This document shows positions 1,108 to 6,996 of a DNA stretch of 6,996 nt, piece after piece; the stretch's first letter is position 1, and each line of letters opens with the position of its first letter. The notes under the pieces were generated by a model that was not told the DNA's origin, did no database searches, and saw only the letters and a list, made by a program, of their open reading frames with translations. The position numbers and the translations under genes were made by a program. Source of the DNA: a virus (taxonomy: Duplodnaviria > Heunggongvirae > Uroviricota > Caudoviricetes); the IMG/VR virus record IMGVR_UViG_2671180417_000012, positions 1-6,996 of that record. One strand, given 5' to 3'.

Positions 1108-1530
1108 TCACAACAGCACCTTCTGAAAATTACCCTGATAGAAAGCCAGTACACGCTGCATAGCTTCGCTCTTCCGGCACTCGCTACAGATTATGTTTTG
1201 ACGCCTGTCGTAGCGGCGTATTTCTCCGTCTGGTAATGGCCAGATAAGGTCAGGATCAACCACAGATGGTTTCTTCAGATTTGCCCTTGAGAGTTTTTTG
1301 CGGGCGTTTTGCCAGTCCTTACGCGCCTGTTCAGACGGGAATAACCCGTAACCAGAGTTGTATACATCGCCACTGGCAACCAGCTCTCTGGTGAGAACAC
1401 TCATCAGATATCTTGTCGCACCTGTCTTGGCTTCCAGTTGCCGCAACGTCTCGCGACCGCTCAGACGTACAAGTTCAACAACCTGCCCTTTAATTTTTTC
1501 CCGCTCTTCTTGTGTAAATACTTTTGCCAT
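1108..1530 (-). CDS. hypothetical protein with winged-helix-like N-terminal region (140 aa)
   Basis: ATG at 1530-1528 preceded by GGAGG with 5-nt spacing. The track's longer version begins at a TTG at 1545 that would abut the upstream stop; the ATG with SD is preferred. The segment ETLRQLEAKTGATRYLMSVLTRELVASGDV resembles an HTH/winged-helix motif. Confidence 0.65.
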   Translation of the reverse strand: MAKVFTQEEREKIKGQVVELVRLSGRETLRQLEAKTGATRYLMSVLTRELVASGDVYNSGYGLFPSEQARKDWQNARKKLSRANLKKPSVVDPDLIWPLPDGEIRRYDRRQNIICSECRKSEAMQRVLAFYQGNFQKVLL

Positions 1531-1545
1531 AAGCGCCTCCGGCAA

Positions 1546-2316
1546 TCACTTTTCCGATACAACACGGCGGGAAGAATCAGTAATCTGTCGAACAATATCC
1601 CGGTGCTTGTTCAGCTCCCGCAGCGCGGCGCAGACTCGCTCCCACTTCTGAACATCACTTTTCGCCCTGCGCAGCGCCAGGTTTGCCCTGCGAAGGGACG
1701 GAAAAATCAGCTCATCTGCTTGCGTTTCGGTAAACGATGGCAACGGCTGCACAATGTCCGCCACAGTTTCTGTTTTAATTTCTTCCTGTGTTGCGGCTTC
1801 CCGGACTGGTAACGCAGCACCTGCTGGCTGAGGAAAGGCCTTACCATCACTTTCCGTTACCAGCGCGGCTTTCGGCTCTGCTGGTAAATTATCGCCCGGC
1901 ATGCAGTAACGAAATTTACCGTTCTGATTAACGCGTGCCAGCCGCCCCGTTGCGGTTACCACCGCCAGCGTGGAAGCAACCTTGCGAGTACTGACACCGA
2001 ACTTACCCGCCAGTTCCTCACACGTTTTAGCCCCATCCTGACCGATAAACTCAATCATCATGTCTGCGGTAACTTTTTGTTCGACCTCCCCGGTCAGCAT
2101 ATCCTGTGCTTCAGATTTTACTGGCCGCTCTTCGGTTACCCGGGATTCACCTTCGCCAGCCAGAAACCAGGTGTGACCAGTTTTATCAACGACGCCTTTT
2201 CTTTTGAGTTCCCACAGCTCGTTGACAGCCTCTTCACGACTGATTCCAAGGCGAGCTGCCACCACATGTGAAGAGGCTTTTTTCAGTGCTTTCAGTGCGT
2301 CAGATACGGTTTCCAT
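1546..2316 (-). CDS. phage protein with two winged-helix-like segments (256 aa)
   Basis: ATG at 2316-2314 preceded by GGAGG with 8-nt spacing. Two HTH-like segments (AARLGISREEAVNELWELKRKGVV and CEELAGKFGVSTRKVASTLAVVTATGRLARV). Sits immediately downstream of the helicase-loader gene. Confidence 0.75.
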   Translation of the reverse strand: METVSDALKALKKASSHVVAARLGISREEAVNELWELKRKGVVDKTGHTWFLAGEGESRVTEERPVKSEAQDMLTGEVEQKVTADMMIEFIGQDGAKTCEELAGKFGVSTRKVASTLAVVTATGRLARVNQNGKFRYCMPGDNLPAEPKAALVTESDGKAFPQPAGAALPVREAATQEEIKTETVADIVQPLPSFTETQADELIFPSLRRANLALRRAKSDVQKWERVCAALRELNKHRDIVRQITDSSRRVVSEK

Positions 2317-2337
2317 TAAAATTTCCTCCGGACAAAA

Positions 2338-3084
2338 TTACTTCACAACCCTCATATTGCTGACATTTGGACGCCAGCTATCCCAGTTAAACGTCACCCA
2401 TCGACCACCGTTCATGGTCATGCGGTCCATAATCCTCTCACCAAGAAGCGTACTCATTGCGGCATGATTCAGGTTTGTTAACATCCCGACACTGCACAGT
2501 GATGCTGTCCGGCGATCAATTATCTGGTGCAATACCACCTGCTCGTTTTTCGTCTCCCGCTGAACGCCTATTTCATCCAGGACCAGCAAATCAACCCCGC
2601 AAAGCTCCTGTAAAAATTTTTCCCCGGATTTGCCGTTGTCGTAGCTGTCATGCAACACGCTCATGACGTCAGACACGGTGACGATAATCACGCTGCGCCC
2701 CTTCACCATCAGCCGGTTGCCCATCGCCGCTGCAAGGTGATTTTTCCCGGTGCCGGTTTTACCGCTGAACACAAAATTCGTGCACCCGGTCATCAGTTCG
2801 TCAGCTATGGATTTGGCCTGGCTCAGCGCGTATTTTTGCCCGTCGTTCTGCACCTGATAATTTGCAAACGAGCATTTGCTGTGCAGAGGCTGGATGCCCG
2901 AACGATTCAGGATTTTTTCCACCCGCAACTGGCGATTCTGGCGGTTAATCTCCTCGCTGCGTTTTCGTCCTTCAGCAAGTTGCCATTCCCGCCACTCCTC
3001 CACCGTCCGGTACGGTGGAACCGACCCCTGTGGTGCAAGTCTGCGAATACGTTCAAGAACCCCAACTGCCGCAATGTTTTTCAT
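2338..3084 (-). CDS. DnaC-like replicative helicase loader (AAA+ ATPase; phage P-position gene)
   Basis: Walker A FSGKTGTGKNHLAAA and Walker B DLLVLDEIGVQ, plus GMLTNLN, LLGERIMDRM and WVTFNWDSWR, match the motifs of E. coli DnaC as I remember them. Size and position correspond to ydaV of the K-12 Rac prophage. Confidence 0.92.
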   Translation of the reverse strand: MKNIAAVGVLERIRRLAPQGSVPPYRTVEEWREWQLAEGRKRSEEINRQNRQLRVEKILNRSGIQPLHSKCSFANYQVQNDGQKYALSQAKSIADELMTGCTNFVFSGKTGTGKNHLAAAMGNRLMVKGRSVIIVTVSDVMSVLHDSYDNGKSGEKFLQELCGVDLLVLDEIGVQRETKNEQVVLHQIIDRRTASLCSVGMLTNLNHAAMSTLLGERIMDRMTMNGGRWVTFNWDSWRPNVSNMRVVK

Positions 3085-3090
3085 GACACG

Positions 3091-4032
3091 TCACCCCCTG
3101 AATCCCGGCGGTATTTCAGTGTCCGGTTCAGAAATGTGATTCACGCAACGCTGCGCGGGCGAACGCCCCAGGCGGATAACCAGTTCATCCCATTTTTCCC
3201 GGAGTTTTGCCGGACTCATGATGTTTTTTACCCAGAACGAATCCCGCTGGAGACGCCCAAACATTTCACAAATTTGTCTGTGAGTTCTGCCATCCAGCAT
3301 CCGCATTGTCCGCACGTCATTGGCCCATGCAGTCCAGTTGGGTTCTTTCGGTCTCGTGATCTCGCCATCATCGCTGGCCGCCTGCTCGTAAAGACTCACG
3401 ATTCGTCCCCAGACCCACTGTGCGCACACCAAATCTTCCTGACTTCCCCACTGGCGTTTTTTTGCACTGAACACAACCGCGTCAGGGTGTCGGGTTAAAA
3501 AATTCTGTTCAGCCGTCTGCGGGTCCGGTTGCGAAGCGTCCGGACAAGAAGATCTTTTATCTGACGGATCGGGGTCAATCATCGCCCCCCTAATCGGCAG
3601 TTTGTTATCAACAGTTGATCCATCAAAATTTGACGGGTCAACCGTTGAGGGGGCAATATTTGACGGGTCAACTGTTAACGGGTCATTTTTTGCCGGGCTA
3701 ATTTTTCTTTTCGGTTTATATGACTCACGCGCCGCCGCAGCAGCTGCTTCGAGTTTTTCCACATTAAGCCGATAGATATTGCTTACATTACGCCCACCGA
3801 CCTTACGCTCTTCCTTCGTCAGCCAGCCCTCTTTCGCCAGTTCTGCAATAGCCGATTTCACTGTGGATTCACTTCTTGCACCGATCTGACGCCGGATAGT
3901 TTCAATGGCAGGCCATGACACGCCCTCGTCATTGCTGTAGTCTGCAAGACGGGCCATAACCGCCACCCTGGATAAGATCATGCCGGTGAAGGCGCACCCT
4001 TCCCAGACAAGACCATGAAGCTTGCTGCTCAT
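3091..4032 (-). CDS. replication initiator, lambda-O-like (N-terminal HTH; origin iterons inside the gene)
   Basis: ATG at 4032-4030 after a G-run (an alternative GTG at 4047 gives the track's 318 aa). N-terminal HTH-like segment (SWPAIETIRRQIGARSESTVKSAIAELAKEGWL). An internal peptide repeat (TVDPSNIAPSTVDPSNFDGSTVD) corresponds to DNA iterons. Sits directly upstream of the DnaC-like gene. Confidence 0.85.
   Translation of the reverse strand: MSSKLHGLVWEGCAFTGMILSRVAVMARLADYSNDEGVSWPAIETIRRQIGARSESTVKSAIAELAKEGWLTKEERKVGGRNVSNIYRLNVEKLEAAAAAARESYKPKRKISPAKNDPLTVDPSNIAPSTVDPSNFDGSTVDNKLPIRGAMIDPDPSDKRSSCPDASQPDPQTAEQNFLTRHPDAVVFSAKKRQWGSQEDLVCAQWVWGRIVSLYEQAASDDGEITRPKEPNWTAWANDVRTMRMLDGRTHRQICEMFGRLQRDSFWVKNIMSPAKLREKWDELVIRLGRSPAQRCVNHISEPDTEIPPGFRG
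3606..3725. repeat. putative replication origin: three iterons followed by an AT-rich tract
   Basis: Palindromic cores TCAACaGTTGA (about 3608-3618), TCAACcGTTGA (about 3638-3648) and TCAACtGTTaA (about 3668-3678). The last two sit in a longer repeat, ATTTGACGGGTCAAC. The run ttttttgccgggctaatttttcttttcggtttatat follows at 3686-3725. This is the lambda ori layout inside O. Confidence 0.6.
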
Positions 4033-4054
4033 AAAACCCCCGAACACCGTGCTT

Positions 4055-4480
4055 TTAGTGCATCACCACAGCATTCCCTGCCGGGCCGCCGCGATTCATC
4101 TGGTCATACAAAACAACCGCTGACGCAACAAAATCATCGACATCCTTCACCAGCCGATCCCTCCGTTCGACGATCTCACGGTAATATTCAGAACTGTGGC
4201 TGCGCATACGGGCCACCAGCAAAGGCGGCATCGCCTTTTCGATCGCCGGTAACAGAGCCTGCATTTTTTCAACAGCATCAGGGGTGTCTTTCTCTACCCA
4301 GCGGAAAATTTTCTGGGTATTGCGAGCCAGGGCTTCCGGATGGCTGTCGTCATACAGTTCCGGGAACGTCATTCCCAGCTCGAAATACGCTTTGGTAATT
4401 TTCGCAGCCGGTACTTTTTCGCCGTCCGGATGCGCCCAGACATTCATCGCCATGCGGATGTGTTCATGCTTGATTTTCAT
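4055..4480 (-). CDS. ydaT: YdaT-like protein (Rac-prophage family; CII-position gene)
   Basis: ATG at 4480-4478 overlaps the stop of the upstream Cro-like gene (ATGA overlap), with GGAG 7 nt upstream. The sequence (MKIKHEHIRMAMNVWAHPDGE...) matches my recollection of E. coli Rac YdaT; the 141-aa length fits. Confidence 0.85.
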   Translation of the reverse strand: MKIKHEHIRMAMNVWAHPDGEKVPAAKITKAYFELGMTFPELYDDSHPEALARNTQKIFRWVEKDTPDAVEKMQALLPAIEKAMPPLLVARMRSHSSEYYREIVERRDRLVKDVDDFVASAVVLYDQMNRGGPAGNAVVMH

Positions 4481-4779
4481 GAATCAACTCCATCAGATAA
4501 GCATGCACTACAATCACCTTCAGCATGAACTACATGTGTTTGCCCCAAACGAATGCCGCTCGCATACTCAGGCCAAATAAGCTCCCAATCATGGGGTCGT
4601 AGCTCCGCCCTACTTACTTGGCCTTCCGTCGCAGATTCGATCATAAGGGCGCGGGTTGGAGATATAGCTGTTCGTCCAGACGCCATTTGCGATAAGTAAG
4701 ATGGCGATACACCAAGTCTGGCCGCGAATTTCTTAGCATCACCAACCCTTAATGATTTAATAAACTCTTTTAATGTCAT
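4477..4779 (-). CDS. ydaS: Cro-like HTH protein, YdaS family
   Basis: ATG at 4779-4777 with SD GAGGAAGG (reverse complement of 4782-4789). HTH segment AKKFAARLGVSPSYLSQMASGRTAISP. First gene of the minus operon, divergent from the regulator gene. Confidence 0.85.
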   Translation of the reverse strand: MTLKEFIKSLRVGDAKKFAARLGVSPSYLSQMASGRTAISPTRALMIESATEGQVSRAELRPHDWELIWPEYASGIRLGQTHVVHAEGDCSACLSDGVDS

Positions 4780-4876
4780 ACCTTCCTCGGTTTAGTGTTT
4801 TTTTGCGAGTTTAGTGTTTAATAAACCATTAAGTCAAGTATTTGCTTGTTTAGTGATTACTAAAGATAATTACCAC
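4780..4876. promoter_or_regulatory. divergent promoter/operator region (OR-like)
   Basis: Three direct repeats GTTTAGTG(T/A)TT at 4790-4800, 4809-4819 and 4848-4858. Plus-strand promoter: -35 TTGCTT (4842-4847), 17-nt spacer, -10 GATAAT (4865-4870), placing the start about at the ATG at 4877. Minus-strand promoter: -35 TTGACT (reverse complement of 4832-4837), 18-nt spacer, -10 TAAACT (reverse complement of 4808-4813). Confidence 0.6.
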
Positions 4877-5248
4877 ATGCAAAAAAAAGAAATTCGCCGT
4901 TTACGTCTCAAGGAGTGGTTTAAAGATAAAACTCTGCCACCCAAAGAGAAGAGCTACCTATCTCAACTAATGAGTGGGAGAGCCTCGTTTGGAGAAAAGG
5001 CTGCCAGAAGAATAGAGCAAACATACGGGATGCCGGAAGGGTATCTGGATGCGGAATACGCAGAACAACCGGGGGTTTCTCCACCACATGCAGGGTTAAC
5101 GTCTAATCAACTGGAATTATTGCAGATTTTTTCAGCCTTCCCTGAGGATGAGCAACGCCAGATAATCAGCGAGTTAAAGCAGAAAAAAGAATCAATGGAA
5201 GATCTCATAGCGAGATGGATTGCGGCGCAAAAATGCCGCCGCGCCTGA
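4877..5248 (+). CDS. paaR2: HTH transcriptional regulator (PaaR2-like; occupies the repressor position)
   Basis: ATG at 4877 with no SD, 7 nt after a GATAAT -10 (leaderless, like lambda cI from PRM). HTH segment SYLSQLMSGRASFGEKAARRIEQTYGM. The track's upstream GTG at 4814 would overlap the operators and is not preferred. The name is from memory of the O157:H7 paaR2-paaA2-parE2 locus. Confidence 0.8.
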   Translation: MQKKEIRRLRLKEWFKDKTLPPKEKSYLSQLMSGRASFGEKAARRIEQTYGMPEGYLDAEYAEQPGVSPPHAGLTSNQLELLQIFSAFPEDEQRQIISELKQKKESMEDLIARWIAAQKCRRA

Positions 5249-5268
5249 GTTATAAAACCGGAGGAAAC

Positions 5269-5460
5269 ATGAATAGAGCCCTTTCACCAATGGTTTCTGA
5301 ATTTGAAACCATTGAACAAGAAAACAGTTACAACGAATGGCTGCGTGCGAAAGTAGCAACGAGCCTTGCAGATCCGCGCCCAGCAATTCCCCATGACGAA
5401 GTTGAGCGCAGAATGGCAGAACGCTTTGCTAAGATGCGCAAGGAACGGAGCAAGCAGTAA
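5269..5460 (+). CDS. paaA2: small antitoxin of a ParE-type toxin-antitoxin module (PaaA2-like, 63 aa)
   Basis: ATG at 5269 preceded by GGAGGA (5260-5265). 63-aa charged, helix-prone protein, immediately upstream of the ParE-like gene with a 1-nt gap (TAA 5458-5460, ATG 5462). The track's upstream start at 5215 overlaps the regulator gene and is not preferred. Confidence 0.8.
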   Translation: MNRALSPMVSEFETIEQENSYNEWLRAKVATSLADPRPAIPHDEVERRMAERFAKMRKERSKQ

Positions 5461-5461
5461 A

Positions 5462-5740
5462 ATGTTACCCGTGTTATGGCTTGAAAGCGCAGATACCGAC
5501 CTAGATGATATAACTAGTTATATTGCTCGTTTCGACATAGATGCGGCTGAACGCTTATGGCAGCGATTAAGGGGTTGTGTGCTGCCGTTATCCGAACATC
5601 CGTATTTATACCCACCAAGCGACAGAGTACCTGGCTTGCGTGAGATTGTAGCCCACCCTAACTATATAATTCTATACCGCGTAACAACATCAAGCGTTGA
5701 AGTAGTAAACGTGATCCACGCAAGACGCCAGTTTCCCTAA
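5462..5740 (+). CDS. parE2: ParE/RelE-superfamily toxin (ParE2-like, 92 aa)
   Basis: ATG at 5462 (MLPVLWLESADTD...). Size, composition and conserved C-terminal region (HPNYIILYRV...VEVVNVIHARRQFP) fit the ParE family. Operon partner of the small antitoxin. The track's longer start at 5366 would overlap the antitoxin by 95 nt. Confidence 0.85.
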   Translation: MLPVLWLESADTDLDDITSYIARFDIDAAERLWQRLRGCVLPLSEHPYLYPPSDRVPGLREIVAHPNYIILYRVTTSSVEVVNVIHARRQFP

Positions 5741-5755
5741 CTTTCACTACCAATA

Positions 5756-5808
5756 GAAACATAACAACCGCAACGACTTTATCAAAAGCGTTGTGTTTGT
5801 TATGTTCC
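5756..5808 (+). terminator. long imperfect inverted repeat, possible terminator after the toxin gene
   Basis: About 18 bp pair between 5757-5775 and 5789-5806 (one mismatch, one G-U), with a 13-nt loop. A T-rich segment GGTTTAGTTTTT follows a few nt later. Begins 16 nt after the parE2-like stop. Confidence 0.4.
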
Positions 5809-5855
5809 GCGGTTTAGTTTTTACTTGACTTAAGTTTAATATTCATTAAACCAAA
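5809..5855 (+). promoter_or_regulatory. putative PL-like promoter with operator copy (OL-like)
   Basis: CGGTTTAGT (5810-5818) repeats the operator motif of the 4780-4876 region. TACTTGACTTAA (5822-5833) is identical to the context of the -35 TTGACT of the minus-strand promoter at 4832-4837 and contains the palindrome ACTTAAGT. No confident -10 (best TAAACC at 16-nt spacing). Confidence 0.4.
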
Positions 5856-6170
5856 AATACCAACCCACCCCGCCCCACAGAACGCAGGGAAATACTTCGA
5901 GTTACCCGGCAGTGGTCAGGGGTTAAGTAGCCAGCCCGAGGCGTATGAACATGACGGCAGGGTTCAACTTTAATAACTATGCAGCAGGTTTTTGTTCCGC
6001 TACCCCGGCGTTAAGGGGAAACAGAGGGTTTCTCAGTGGGCGAAGTCAAACATCAGAATGGAAGGCATCCCGGGATCGGCAAAGAAGCAGCAATGGCGCT
6101 TTATATTGACATCAGCGCCATTGCAGGACAGGTAAGAGTTATCAGAGCGGTAACTAAGCGGTATGCGCCT

Positions 6171-6371
6171 TTACTTCAGAAAGTCTCTGGTGAGTGCACC
6201 GAAGATATTGTCAACGATTTCGTCATCGAACTGCGAGGACTCATCTTCAGTTACAAGGTGACCACAATTTTTGCAGATGGCTCCCGCGAAACTGTCAGAG
6301 CCCTGCGGCTTAAAGGATGTGTCAAAGACTTCGCCACCACATTCTGGGCAAGAAAACTTGATTGTATTCAT
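6171..6371 (-). CDS. zinc-ribbon mini-protein (66 aa, CPxCG...CxxCG)
   Basis: ATG at 6371-6369 with SD GAGAGG/GAGGAA 8 nt upstream. Two CxxCG knuckles (CPECGG, CKNCGH) 17 residues apart, and an acidic C-terminal tail. Codon usage looks more E. coli-like than that of the overlapping plus-strand ORF 6036..6392, which uses AGA three times. Confidence 0.6.
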   Translation of the reverse strand: MNTIKFSCPECGGEVFDTSFKPQGSDSFAGAICKNCGHLVTEDESSQFDDEIVDNIFGALTRDFLK

Positions 6372-6463
6372 AACCAATTTCCTCTCGAGTAACAGACCCC
6401 TCAGAGGATACCACCTCGCCTGACGTGGTTAAAAGCAGGCAACGCTAACCACAAGGAGCCGAC

Positions 6464-6682
6464 ATGCAGAAACGAGAACCCGTCATCATCGCGCCAGACT
6501 ATACCGATGATGAACTTTATGAGTGGATGCACCAGAAAATTAATGCAGCGCAGGATCTGAAATGGGCCAATGAAGCCAGGGCTAAGCAGGCTGAAAATCT
6601 GTCCGCTCTGGAGCAGGATATCACCAATCTGGAAAAAGCAGCGGCATTAAGCATTGCCAGAATGATTACATACCCGCGTTAG
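6464..6682 (+). CDS. hypothetical small protein (72 aa)
   Basis: ATG at 6464 preceded by AAGGAG (6453-6458) with 5-nt spacing. Charged, helix-prone sequence. On the same strand as the presumed PL-like transcription. Confidence 0.6.
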   Translation: MQKREPVIIAPDYTDDELYEWMHQKINAAQDLKWANEARAKQAENLSALEQDITNLEKAAALSIARMITYPR

Positions 6683-6699
6683 TAGCTAATCAACAAAGC

Positions 6700-6996
6700 T
6701 AAGGTTAGTAATTAAGGAGTTCTCCACGGGTGAGGTGGAGTGCGTGCGCCGGACACGGGTGAGCATCCGGCACTGACAGTTTACTGAAAGGATATTTCCC
6801 TGAAAAGTCAGACCATAACGCGAAAGCGCACGGCGAGGTAGCTGGTTCATAGATAGCCTGTCGTTAAATTTTCGTCGACCGTGCGCTTCCGGTTGTGGCA
6901 ACCCGCGAAATGGCGCGGCGGTAAGTATGGCGGGGTTATTCCTTCCCCCGTTGAGGACACCGGGTTGTCAGGTTGACCATACGCTTAAGTGACAAC
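6700..6996 (+). other. GC-rich, hairpin-dense non-coding region (candidate structured RNA), continuing past the window end
   Basis: No plausible ORF on either strand. Adjacent hairpins CTCCAC-GGGTGAG-GTGGAG (6722-6740) and GCCGGA-CACGGGTGAGCA-TCCGGC (6748-6771) both display the decamer CACGGGTGAG. Further stems: GCGCACGG (6826-6833) with CCGTGCGC (6880-6887), CCGCG-AAATGG-CGCGG (6903-6918), GTATGG (6925-6930) with CCATAC (6977-6982). Confidence 0.3.

Follow-up and report, generated by a model that had tools for sequence, protein, structure and literature searches.

The window (the whole stretch of DNA analysed here, 6,996 nucleotides) holds, with a probability that we put at about 0.93, the immunity region (lysis-lysogeny switch) of a lambdoid E. 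coli prophage of the CP-933P/Sp12 type, in which YdaS and YdaT are Cro- and CII-like regulators. Sequence identity, protein families, the positions of operator and promoter fragments and gene order were computed here; DNA binding, regulation, bistability, the non-toxic nature of YdaT and the addictive behaviour of ParE2 are taken from published experiments on EDL933. Essentially the same locus is present in CP-933P of E. coli O157:H7 EDL933, which is Sp12 in strain Sakai (PMC8630535; PMC9986795). Gene order, the 97-bp OR region, the operator OM and the proteins YdaS, PaaA2 and ParE2 of CP-933P are identical to those of the window.

Identity with the CP-933P immunity region

Positions 3900-5800 of the window were compared with an O157:H7 chromosome and differed at 7 bases in 1901 bp. 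Six of the seven are clustered in ydaT (4292-4325) and the other lies in paaR2 (5076). At the C-terminal end of the recognition helix, YdaT of the window has V62/E63 and that of CP-933P/O157:H7 has L62/D63; residue 67 of PaaR2 is V in the window and G in O157:H7. The V62/E63 allele of YdaT is common in inducible phages such as Tritos, and is also the one found in PDB 3c4r. It sits in what looks like a 34-bp gene-conversion patch. Over positions 1495-6996, identity to O157:H7 was 95.7%, with the differences falling mostly at 2000-3000 and 3400-3600, in the flanking replication genes.

The oligonucleotides used with EDL933 (PMC8630535, Table S3) were mapped onto the window, and exact matches were obtained for 21 of the 22, including those that bound the PR/PRM, PRE and whole-immunity-region fragments. 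By megablast, the 1.9-kb core was 99.6-99.7% identical in the best-matching complete E. coli genomes; at least 80% of the core is held by 591 genomes, and the best match had an identity of at least 99% in 548 records. That exactly this locus had already been characterised was missed in a preliminary description of the window.

The genes of the region are as follows.

2338-3084, minus strand: DnaC-like loader gene, after the O-like gene (NCBIfam PRK12377, 506 bits)
3091..4032, minus strand: O-like replication initiator gene, directly downstream of ydaT (HTH_36 and DnaD_N matches)
4055..4480, minus strand: ydaT, 141 aa, CII analogue, a tetrameric POU-like HTH activator (ORF, Pfam, PDB 8bt1)
4477..4480, minus strand: ydaS stop codon and ydaT start codon, overlapping as ATGA (sequence reading)
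4477..4779, minus strand: ydaS, 100 aa, Cro analogue, an HTH_XRE repressor (ORF, Pfam, PDB 8c7k, PHROG 35)
4877..5248, plus strand: paaR2, 123 aa, CI analogue, leaderless, with an MQKKE start and without a peptidase domain (PHROG 5736)
5269..5460, plus strand: paaA2, antitoxin, 63 aa (Pfam PaaA2 PF21217, 69.9 bits)
5462..5740, plus strand: parE2, toxin, 92 aa (Pfam ParE_toxin PF05016, 59.5 bits)

A lambdoid immunity layout was found, with divergent repressor and cro-like genes and repeated operators, followed by a cII-like gene and then by replication genes. The assignment of ydaS and ydaT to the Cro/CII position, made in the preliminary description, holds: the two genes are flanked by the repressor on one side and by the O-like and DnaC-like replication genes on the other, as in annotated phages and prophages. 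In the O157:H7 record the genes are ordered DUF977, DUF1627, DnaC-like ATPase, O-like HTH protein, YdaT, YdaS, PaaR2, RelB/PaaA2, ParE, ydfC and dicB, and the order repressor, cro-like, cII-like, O-like, DnaC-like is common to this record, Rac and Tritos. The O-like gene also carries an array of 15-bp repeats at 3608-3685. No RNA family reached the gathering score in an Rfam scan of the whole window.

A 144-aa mechanical ORF starting at 4814 was rejected as the start of the regulator, the published, N-terminally sequenced start MQKKE corresponding to the ATG at 4877. With paaR2 starting there, the intergenic region (4780-4876) is exactly 97 bp, matching the published length. The N-terminal domain of PaaR2 matched PDB 7nkv, "Phage repressor protein CI" (E 9.6e-41), and ParE2 matched PDB 5cw7 chain B (E 7.1e-60). 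Regulator, PaaA2 antitoxin and ParE toxin lie on one strand, as in a PaaR2-PaaA2-ParE2 three-component toxin-antitoxin (TA) operon; the ORFs and the Pfam matches to PaaA2 and ParE thus bear out the earlier claim that ydaS-ydaT faces a regulator with a ParE TA pair of its own. ParE2 is the only toxin of the locus with demonstrated activity, namely the stabilisation of plasmids through post-segregational killing (PMC8630535).

The control regions on either side of the repressor operon are as follows.

4780..4876, no strand assigned: OR region, 97 bp, with PR933P, PRM933P and operator repeats of the GTTTAGT type; identical to the O157:H7 copy
4837-4808, minus strand: PR933P, -35 TTGACT (4837-4832) and -10 TAAACT (4813-4808), spacer 18 (promoter scan)
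4842-4870, plus strand: PRM933P, -35 TTGCTT (4842-4847) and -10 GATAAT (4865-4870), spacer 17 (hexamers read by hand)
5811..5853, plus strand: OL/PL933P-like region with operator repeats, -35 TTGACT (5825-5830) and -10 TAAACC (5847-5852)

A generic promoter scan found PR and missed PRM and PRE, which fell under its 9-of-12 threshold; these two were positioned manually, with the published 5' RACE result and primer positions as guides. PRM933P starts at A4877, the first base of the leaderless paaR2 message, with GATAAT ending 6 nt before it. The operator repeats of OR are located at 4790-4801, 4809-4820 and 4848-4859. Footprints and 5' RACE of OR have been published: PaaR2 as well as YdaS leaves a footprint on the 97-bp region across PR933P and PRM933P, and each represses both promoters; PRM is activated by PaaR2 at low levels, and a PL-like promoter beyond parE2 is likewise repressed by the two proteins (PMC8630535). 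The primers of the published PL fragment map to 5741-5761 and 5837-5858 of the window. The PR -35 region reappears at 5822-5833, inverted and without a mismatch over 12 nt, and two families of repeats of 4780-4876 recur at 5811-5853. The OL/PL region carries five substitutions relative to O157:H7, with a PL -10 of TAAACC here and TAAACT there; given the PL -10 and allele differences, quantitative behaviour, notably the strength of PL, may therefore differ from that of CP-933P.

YdaS, YdaT and the ydaS/ydaT boundary

Every testable defining feature of the YdaS and YdaT families was found. The YdaS family (PF15943, COG4197) comprises HTH_XRE regulators of the Cro superfamily. In Pfam profile searches, YdaS matched YdaS_toxin (PF15943) with 46.5 bits (cut-off 30, E 3.3e-12) over profile positions 7-64 of 65 and HTH_3 with 29.8 bits (cut-off 23), and YdaT matched YdaT_toxin (PF06254) with 37.8 bits (cut-off 21, E 2.6e-9), so that the family membership proposed in the preliminary description stands, both proteins scoring above the curated Pfam cut-offs. 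YdaS belongs to PHROG 35, a transcriptional repressor (E 1.6e-23), and YdaT to PHROG 163, "CII-like transcriptional activator" (E 1.3e-46). By BLASTP against the Rac proteins of K-12, YdaS was 40% identical to YdaS (b1357) over 58 aa (E 2e-9) and YdaT was 30% identical to YdaT (b1358) over 144 aligned columns, its full length (E 1e-14). YdaS is identical, at 100 of 100 residues, to PDB 8c7k, titled "Phage antirepressor protein Cro", and YdaT is identical at 138 of 140 residues to PDB 8bt1, the crystal structure of CP-933P YdaT. The recognition helix alpha3 of YdaT keeps the conserved Arg-Trp pair (...KIFR60W61VEKD...), whose role in this helix has been described for R60 in CP-933P and for R57/W58 in Rac (PMC9986795; PMC11879457).

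YdaS scored 16.2 bits against P22_Cro, below the cut-off of 30.2, with no other match to a lambda or P22 Cro family in Pfam, and the Pfam profile search gave no CII-family match for YdaT. Because of this sub-threshold Cro match and the lack of a CII match, YdaS and YdaT are taken as functional analogues of lambda Cro and CII and not as members of those protein families. Proteins about 86-88% identical to YdaT are labelled "activator protein cII" in records of temperate E. coli phages, in which they adjoin cro-like and cI genes. The exact YdaS protein is present on at least 1000 public contigs and the exact YdaT protein on 183; a contig scan with a single protein returned 4 loci.

At the junction of the two genes, the ydaS stop TGA (4479-4477) and the ydaT ATG (4480-4478) overlap by 4 bases on the minus strand, which reads ...GAT TCA TGA AAA..., confirming by direct reading of the sequence the ATGA start/stop coupling that had been reported earlier. 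A GGAG Shine-Dalgarno motif is found at 4491-4488, 7 nt 5' of the ydaT ATG, and translation of the two genes may be coupled at the ATGA. Genes of bacterial operons often overlap in this way, by the four bases ATGA, and the overlap is by itself unremarkable. The overlap lies within the following control elements.

4470..4487, no strand assigned: YdaT operator OM (YdaT-box), TTGATTTTCATGAATCAA, an exact match to TTGATT-N6-AATCAA
4452..4571, plus strand (towards paaR2): PRE933P reporter fragment (published primers)

The window contains one exact copy of TTGATT-N6-AATCAA; it occupies 4470-4487, and the ATGA junction falls within the 6 bp between its half-sites. An exact palindrome of 12 specified bases is expected in about 4e-4 copies in 7 kb by arithmetic. 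When up to 2 mismatches were allowed, 88 of 200 shuffled sequences also gave a match, so that this search is not significant alone and weight was therefore placed only on the exact match at the published position. OM is the high-affinity operator of YdaT, an inverted repeat TTGATT-N6-AATCAA defined by footprinting. YdaT, whose family combines a POU-like HTH domain with a C-terminal tetramerisation helix, forms a tetramer, and its structure and the thermodynamics of operator binding have been published (PMC9986795). The location of the ydaT ATG within the spacer of the YdaT-box had been noted previously (PMC11879457).

Exact matches to primers F-PRE and R-PRE are found at 4452-4471 on the plus strand and at 4553-4571 on the minus strand, respectively. 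Within this fragment, TACAAT (4509-4514) is a candidate -10 for PRE933P, and AACTCC (4486-4491), a weak hexamer overlapping the right half-site of OM, is a candidate -35; OM would then be centred about 42 bp upstream of the presumed start. A weak -35 that overlaps the operator is the geometry expected of an activator-dependent promoter and may be likened to that of CII at lambda PRE. In reporter experiments, YdaT had no effect on PR, PRM or PL and turned on the otherwise silent PRE933P at the ydaS/ydaT boundary (PMC8630535). OM has also been placed "downstream from" PRE933P, a wording that is ambiguous as to its position relative to the promoter (PMC9986795).

The YdaT operator/promoter module thus spans the ydaS/ydaT boundary, and because of this the ATGA overlap is a by-product of the ydaS frame ending at a TGA inside the YdaT-box and not a hallmark of TA coupling. 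The overlap was also considered as a signature of the family and rejected, since the length of the gap or overlap differs among relatives and the YdaT-box is kept in most. Overlaps of 4 bp were found in Tritos and 673R7 and of 17 bp in phage 813R8 and a Klebsiella phage. A YdaT-box with at most one mismatch lies over the ydaT start in Rac, Tritos, 673R7 and a Shigella flexneri locus, and one with a single mismatch is found in an E. albertii locus; in 813R8 and the Klebsiella phage the box is degenerate.

Proposed switch and comparison with Rac and lambda

In the proposed mechanism, PaaR2 would act as CI and YdaS as Cro, both binding overlapping repeats in OR and in the OL/PL region downstream of parE2. 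Mutual repression of PaaR2 and YdaS would yield two heritable states, one with ydaST on and the other with paaR2-paaA2-parE2 on; in published EMSA, footprint and reporter experiments PaaR2 behaves like CI and YdaS like Cro, and their competition for shared operators gives a bistable switch (PMC8630535). YdaT would be made from the same PR transcript as YdaS, by way of the ATGA junction and its own GGAG ribosome-binding site. The YdaT tetramer, in the role of CII, would bind TTGATT-N6-AATCAA over its own start codon and switch on the silent reverse promoter PRE933P inside ydaS, from which transcription would run back towards paaR2, antisense to ydaS. The paaA2-parE2 addiction module would occupy the place that rexAB has in the repressor operon of lambda.

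The circuit logic matches that of lambda: a leaderless repressor gene is transcribed from PRM and divergent cro- and cII-like genes from PR, a second set of operators and promoters lies beyond the repressor operon with accessory genes (rexAB in lambda) inside it, and an activator-dependent reverse promoter is located at the cro/cII boundary. The components differ. CII of lambda reads a direct repeat, whereas the site recognised by the symmetric YdaT tetramer is an inverted repeat; lambda has three OR operators, and four palindromes are present in OR of the CP-933P type. Unlike lambda CI, PaaR2 has no domain for RecA-dependent autocleavage, and no CIII is known for the CP-933P type. No CIII-like partner or proteolytic control is known for YdaT. 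Sites for CP-933P YdaT are absent between paaR2 and ydaS, a difference from Rac (PMC11879457), and for this reason the analogy with CII is incomplete.

The racR-ydaS-ydaT locus of the Rac prophage in K-12 encodes proteins of the same YdaS and YdaT families at the same place between repressor and replication genes. A nearly identical YdaT-box, ATGATT-N6-AATCAA, lies over its ydaT start, a YdaT-activated reverse promoter is found there too, and the Rac and CP-933P YdaT proteins cross-activate the box-dependent promoter (PMC11879457). DNA identity between the window and Rac was 27 of 30 positions from -9 to +20 at the ydaT start and about 11-21 per 30 elsewhere in the genes; the operator therefore constrains the DNA sequence of the first eight codons of ydaT (MKIKHEHI). 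In contrast to the ATGA overlap of the window, ydaS and ydaT of Rac are separated by a gap of 22 bp; RacR is unrelated to PaaR2 (E 0.055) and is not followed by a TA pair. YdaT of Rac has further binding sites in the intergenic region and at host rcsA and is toxic, while YdaT of the CP-933P type is not.

The question of toxicity

Cells that lose RacR of the Rac prophage are killed through ydaS/ydaT, and a debate on whether these genes encode toxins or regulators is on record (PMC5700377; PMC5700373; PMC5917428). The preliminary description had given the same account, with racR essential and the pair read either as TA or as Cro/CII, and in this it matches the three papers. It had also seen in ydaS-ydaT of the window a second potentially toxic module, and this is not supported for the CP-933P type. 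No toxic effect of CP-933P YdaT was seen; YdaS and PaaR2 caused growth defects only, and only upon prolonged overexpression; cells with a reporter plasmid carrying a stop mutation in paaR2 were viable, and the ydaST-on state was the majority state in dual-reporter cells, which grew (PMC8630535). The authors of that study concluded that ydaS-ydaT is not a genuine TA module (PMC8630535). Furthermore, the host rcsA promoter, a target of Rac YdaT that has been linked to the toxic phenotype of that protein, is not activated by CP-933P YdaT (PMC11879457).

That YdaS and YdaT form a type II TA pair with either one as the toxin is a reading already largely refuted, and we consider it very improbable. 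Speaking for it are the names under which the proteins are filed ("Bacterial toxin YdaS" and "Bacterial toxin ydaT" in Pfam, "toxin YdaT family protein" in RefSeq), the small size and tight coupling of the genes, and a weak likeness of YdaS to the HigA antitoxin (24 bits, below the NCBIfam cut-off of 47.7). Against it, the names trace to computational prediction, the genes occupy the cro/cII position, the two proteins, whose structures are solved, are regulators that bind specific DNA sequences, and homologues of YdaT are labelled CII-like activators in PHROGs and in phage records. The published experiments on CP-933P, together with structural identity to DNA-binding regulators, led us to reject the TA reading. 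A different possibility is that the two proteins are regulators whose derepression nevertheless harms the host through off-target promoters, in which case paaR2 would be conditionally essential and the locus would hold two killing functions. The lethality of RacR loss in Rac (PMC5700377; PMC5700373), the filamentation and cell death that follow expression of Rac YdaT, which activates host rcsA, and the growth defects under prolonged overexpression of CP-933P YdaS or PaaR2 all point that way, and the V62/E63 allele of the window is not the L62/D63 allele that was examined experimentally. CP-933P YdaT, however, is neither toxic nor an activator of the rcsA promoter, most dual-reporter cells were ydaST-on and growing, and the paaR2 stop mutant was viable. 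We regard harmful derepression as improbable here. It is equally improbable that V62/E63 YdaT recognises extra host promoters and acts more like toxic Rac YdaT, because this allele is common in inducible phages (Tritos) and occurs in PDB 3c4r, a distribution that speaks against a lethal gain of function; if it did, the paaR2-controlled locus would join two harmful functions in carriers of the allele.

Hardly credible is the notion that the prophage has decayed and left these genes as inert relics without present function. CP-933P has been called cryptic, PaaR2 is without an SOS-cleavable domain, and the -10 of PL in the window has a T-to-C change at its last position; against this, none of the five ORFs is disrupted and their sequences hardly vary among hundreds of genomes, and the operators and promoters of OR are identical to those of EDL933, which are experimentally active.

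The locus is thus already known, and nothing found here goes beyond what has been published (PMC8630535; PMC9986795; PMC11879457): earlier papers describe its operators, its bistability and its proteins, for all of which structures are solved, and the TA reading has been tested and rejected for this type of prophage. For annotation, the names "toxin YdaT family protein" and "YdaS_toxin" are misleading, and the ATGA junction follows from the YdaT operator/promoter module at the ydaS/ydaT boundary.

Mosaic structure and the repeats in the O-like gene

The window, whose core is a CP-933P/Sp12-type lambdoid immunity region, was compared with the copy on an E. coli O157:H7 chromosome. Differences per 200 bp numbered 0-6 in this core and 22-52 in the replication genes, with divergence greatest in the two segments listed first below. 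Since the replication genes are far more diverged from O157:H7 than the immunity core, the window is a mosaic. No match to the whole window was found among the complete E. coli genomes of the collection; the best of these matched it with 87% coverage and 98.8% identity.

2000-3000 and 3400-3600: divergent replication genes (DnaC-like gene, part of the O-like gene, DUF1627)
3608-3685: array of about five head-to-tail 15-bp repeats with the consensus TCAACAGTTGACGGG, internal to the O-like replication gene

The repeats, which are translated as a recurring TVDPSN motif in the O-like protein, are similar to the iterons found in a lambda-type origin, itself located within the O gene.

The OL/PL region and its flanks

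The operator/promoter region beyond parE2 (OL/PL, 5806-5852) carries five substitutions relative to O157:H7. One replaces the final T of the PL -10 hexamer with C (TAAACT in O157:H7, TAAACC in the window) and would be expected to weaken the promoter. R-PL, the published EDL933 primer for the PL fragment, has three mismatches here; nearly all of the other published primers match exactly. The region is flanked by the following features.

5758-5806: imperfect hairpin (23-nt arms, 83% complementary, 3-nt loop)
6171-6377, minus strand: small gene past PL for a 68-aa CxxC...CxxC protein (RefSeq 'ECs_2282 family putative zinc-binding protein')
6464-6682, plus strand: ydfC, a small gene past PL

The hairpin begins 18 bp past the parE2 stop codon, immediately ahead of OL/PL, and may be the terminator of the divergent repressor operon paaR2-paaA2-parE2. 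The terminator scan missed it because no T run directly follows it. The CxxC...CxxC gene lies on the strand opposite to PL; its product and YdfC both match PHROGs of unknown function, and published work gives no functional assignment for the ORFs downstream of PL.

Allelic variation and conservation in ydaT

Within 34 bp of ydaT (4292-4325) the window differs from the O157:H7 copy by six substitutions; the rest of the 1.9-kb stretch differs from that copy by a single base, in paaR2. Two of the six are nonsynonymous and affect residues 62 and 63, at the end of the YdaT recognition helix (V62/E63 in the window, L62/D63 in O157:H7). The commoner ydaT allele is present in the temperate phage Tritos and in PDB 3c4r, and the segment appears to be a short tract of gene conversion from a donor of that type.

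The ydaT start was also compared with the Rac prophage locus of E. coli K-12 (L002), and 27 of 30 nucleotides around it were identical.

4451-4489 (L002, 3176-3205): identity island with the YdaT-box (operator TTGATT-N6-AATCAA) and the first codons (MKIKHEHI)

Outside this island the two YdaT proteins are only about 30% identical; the island points to a dual operator and coding-sequence constraint, or to a junction of module exchange.
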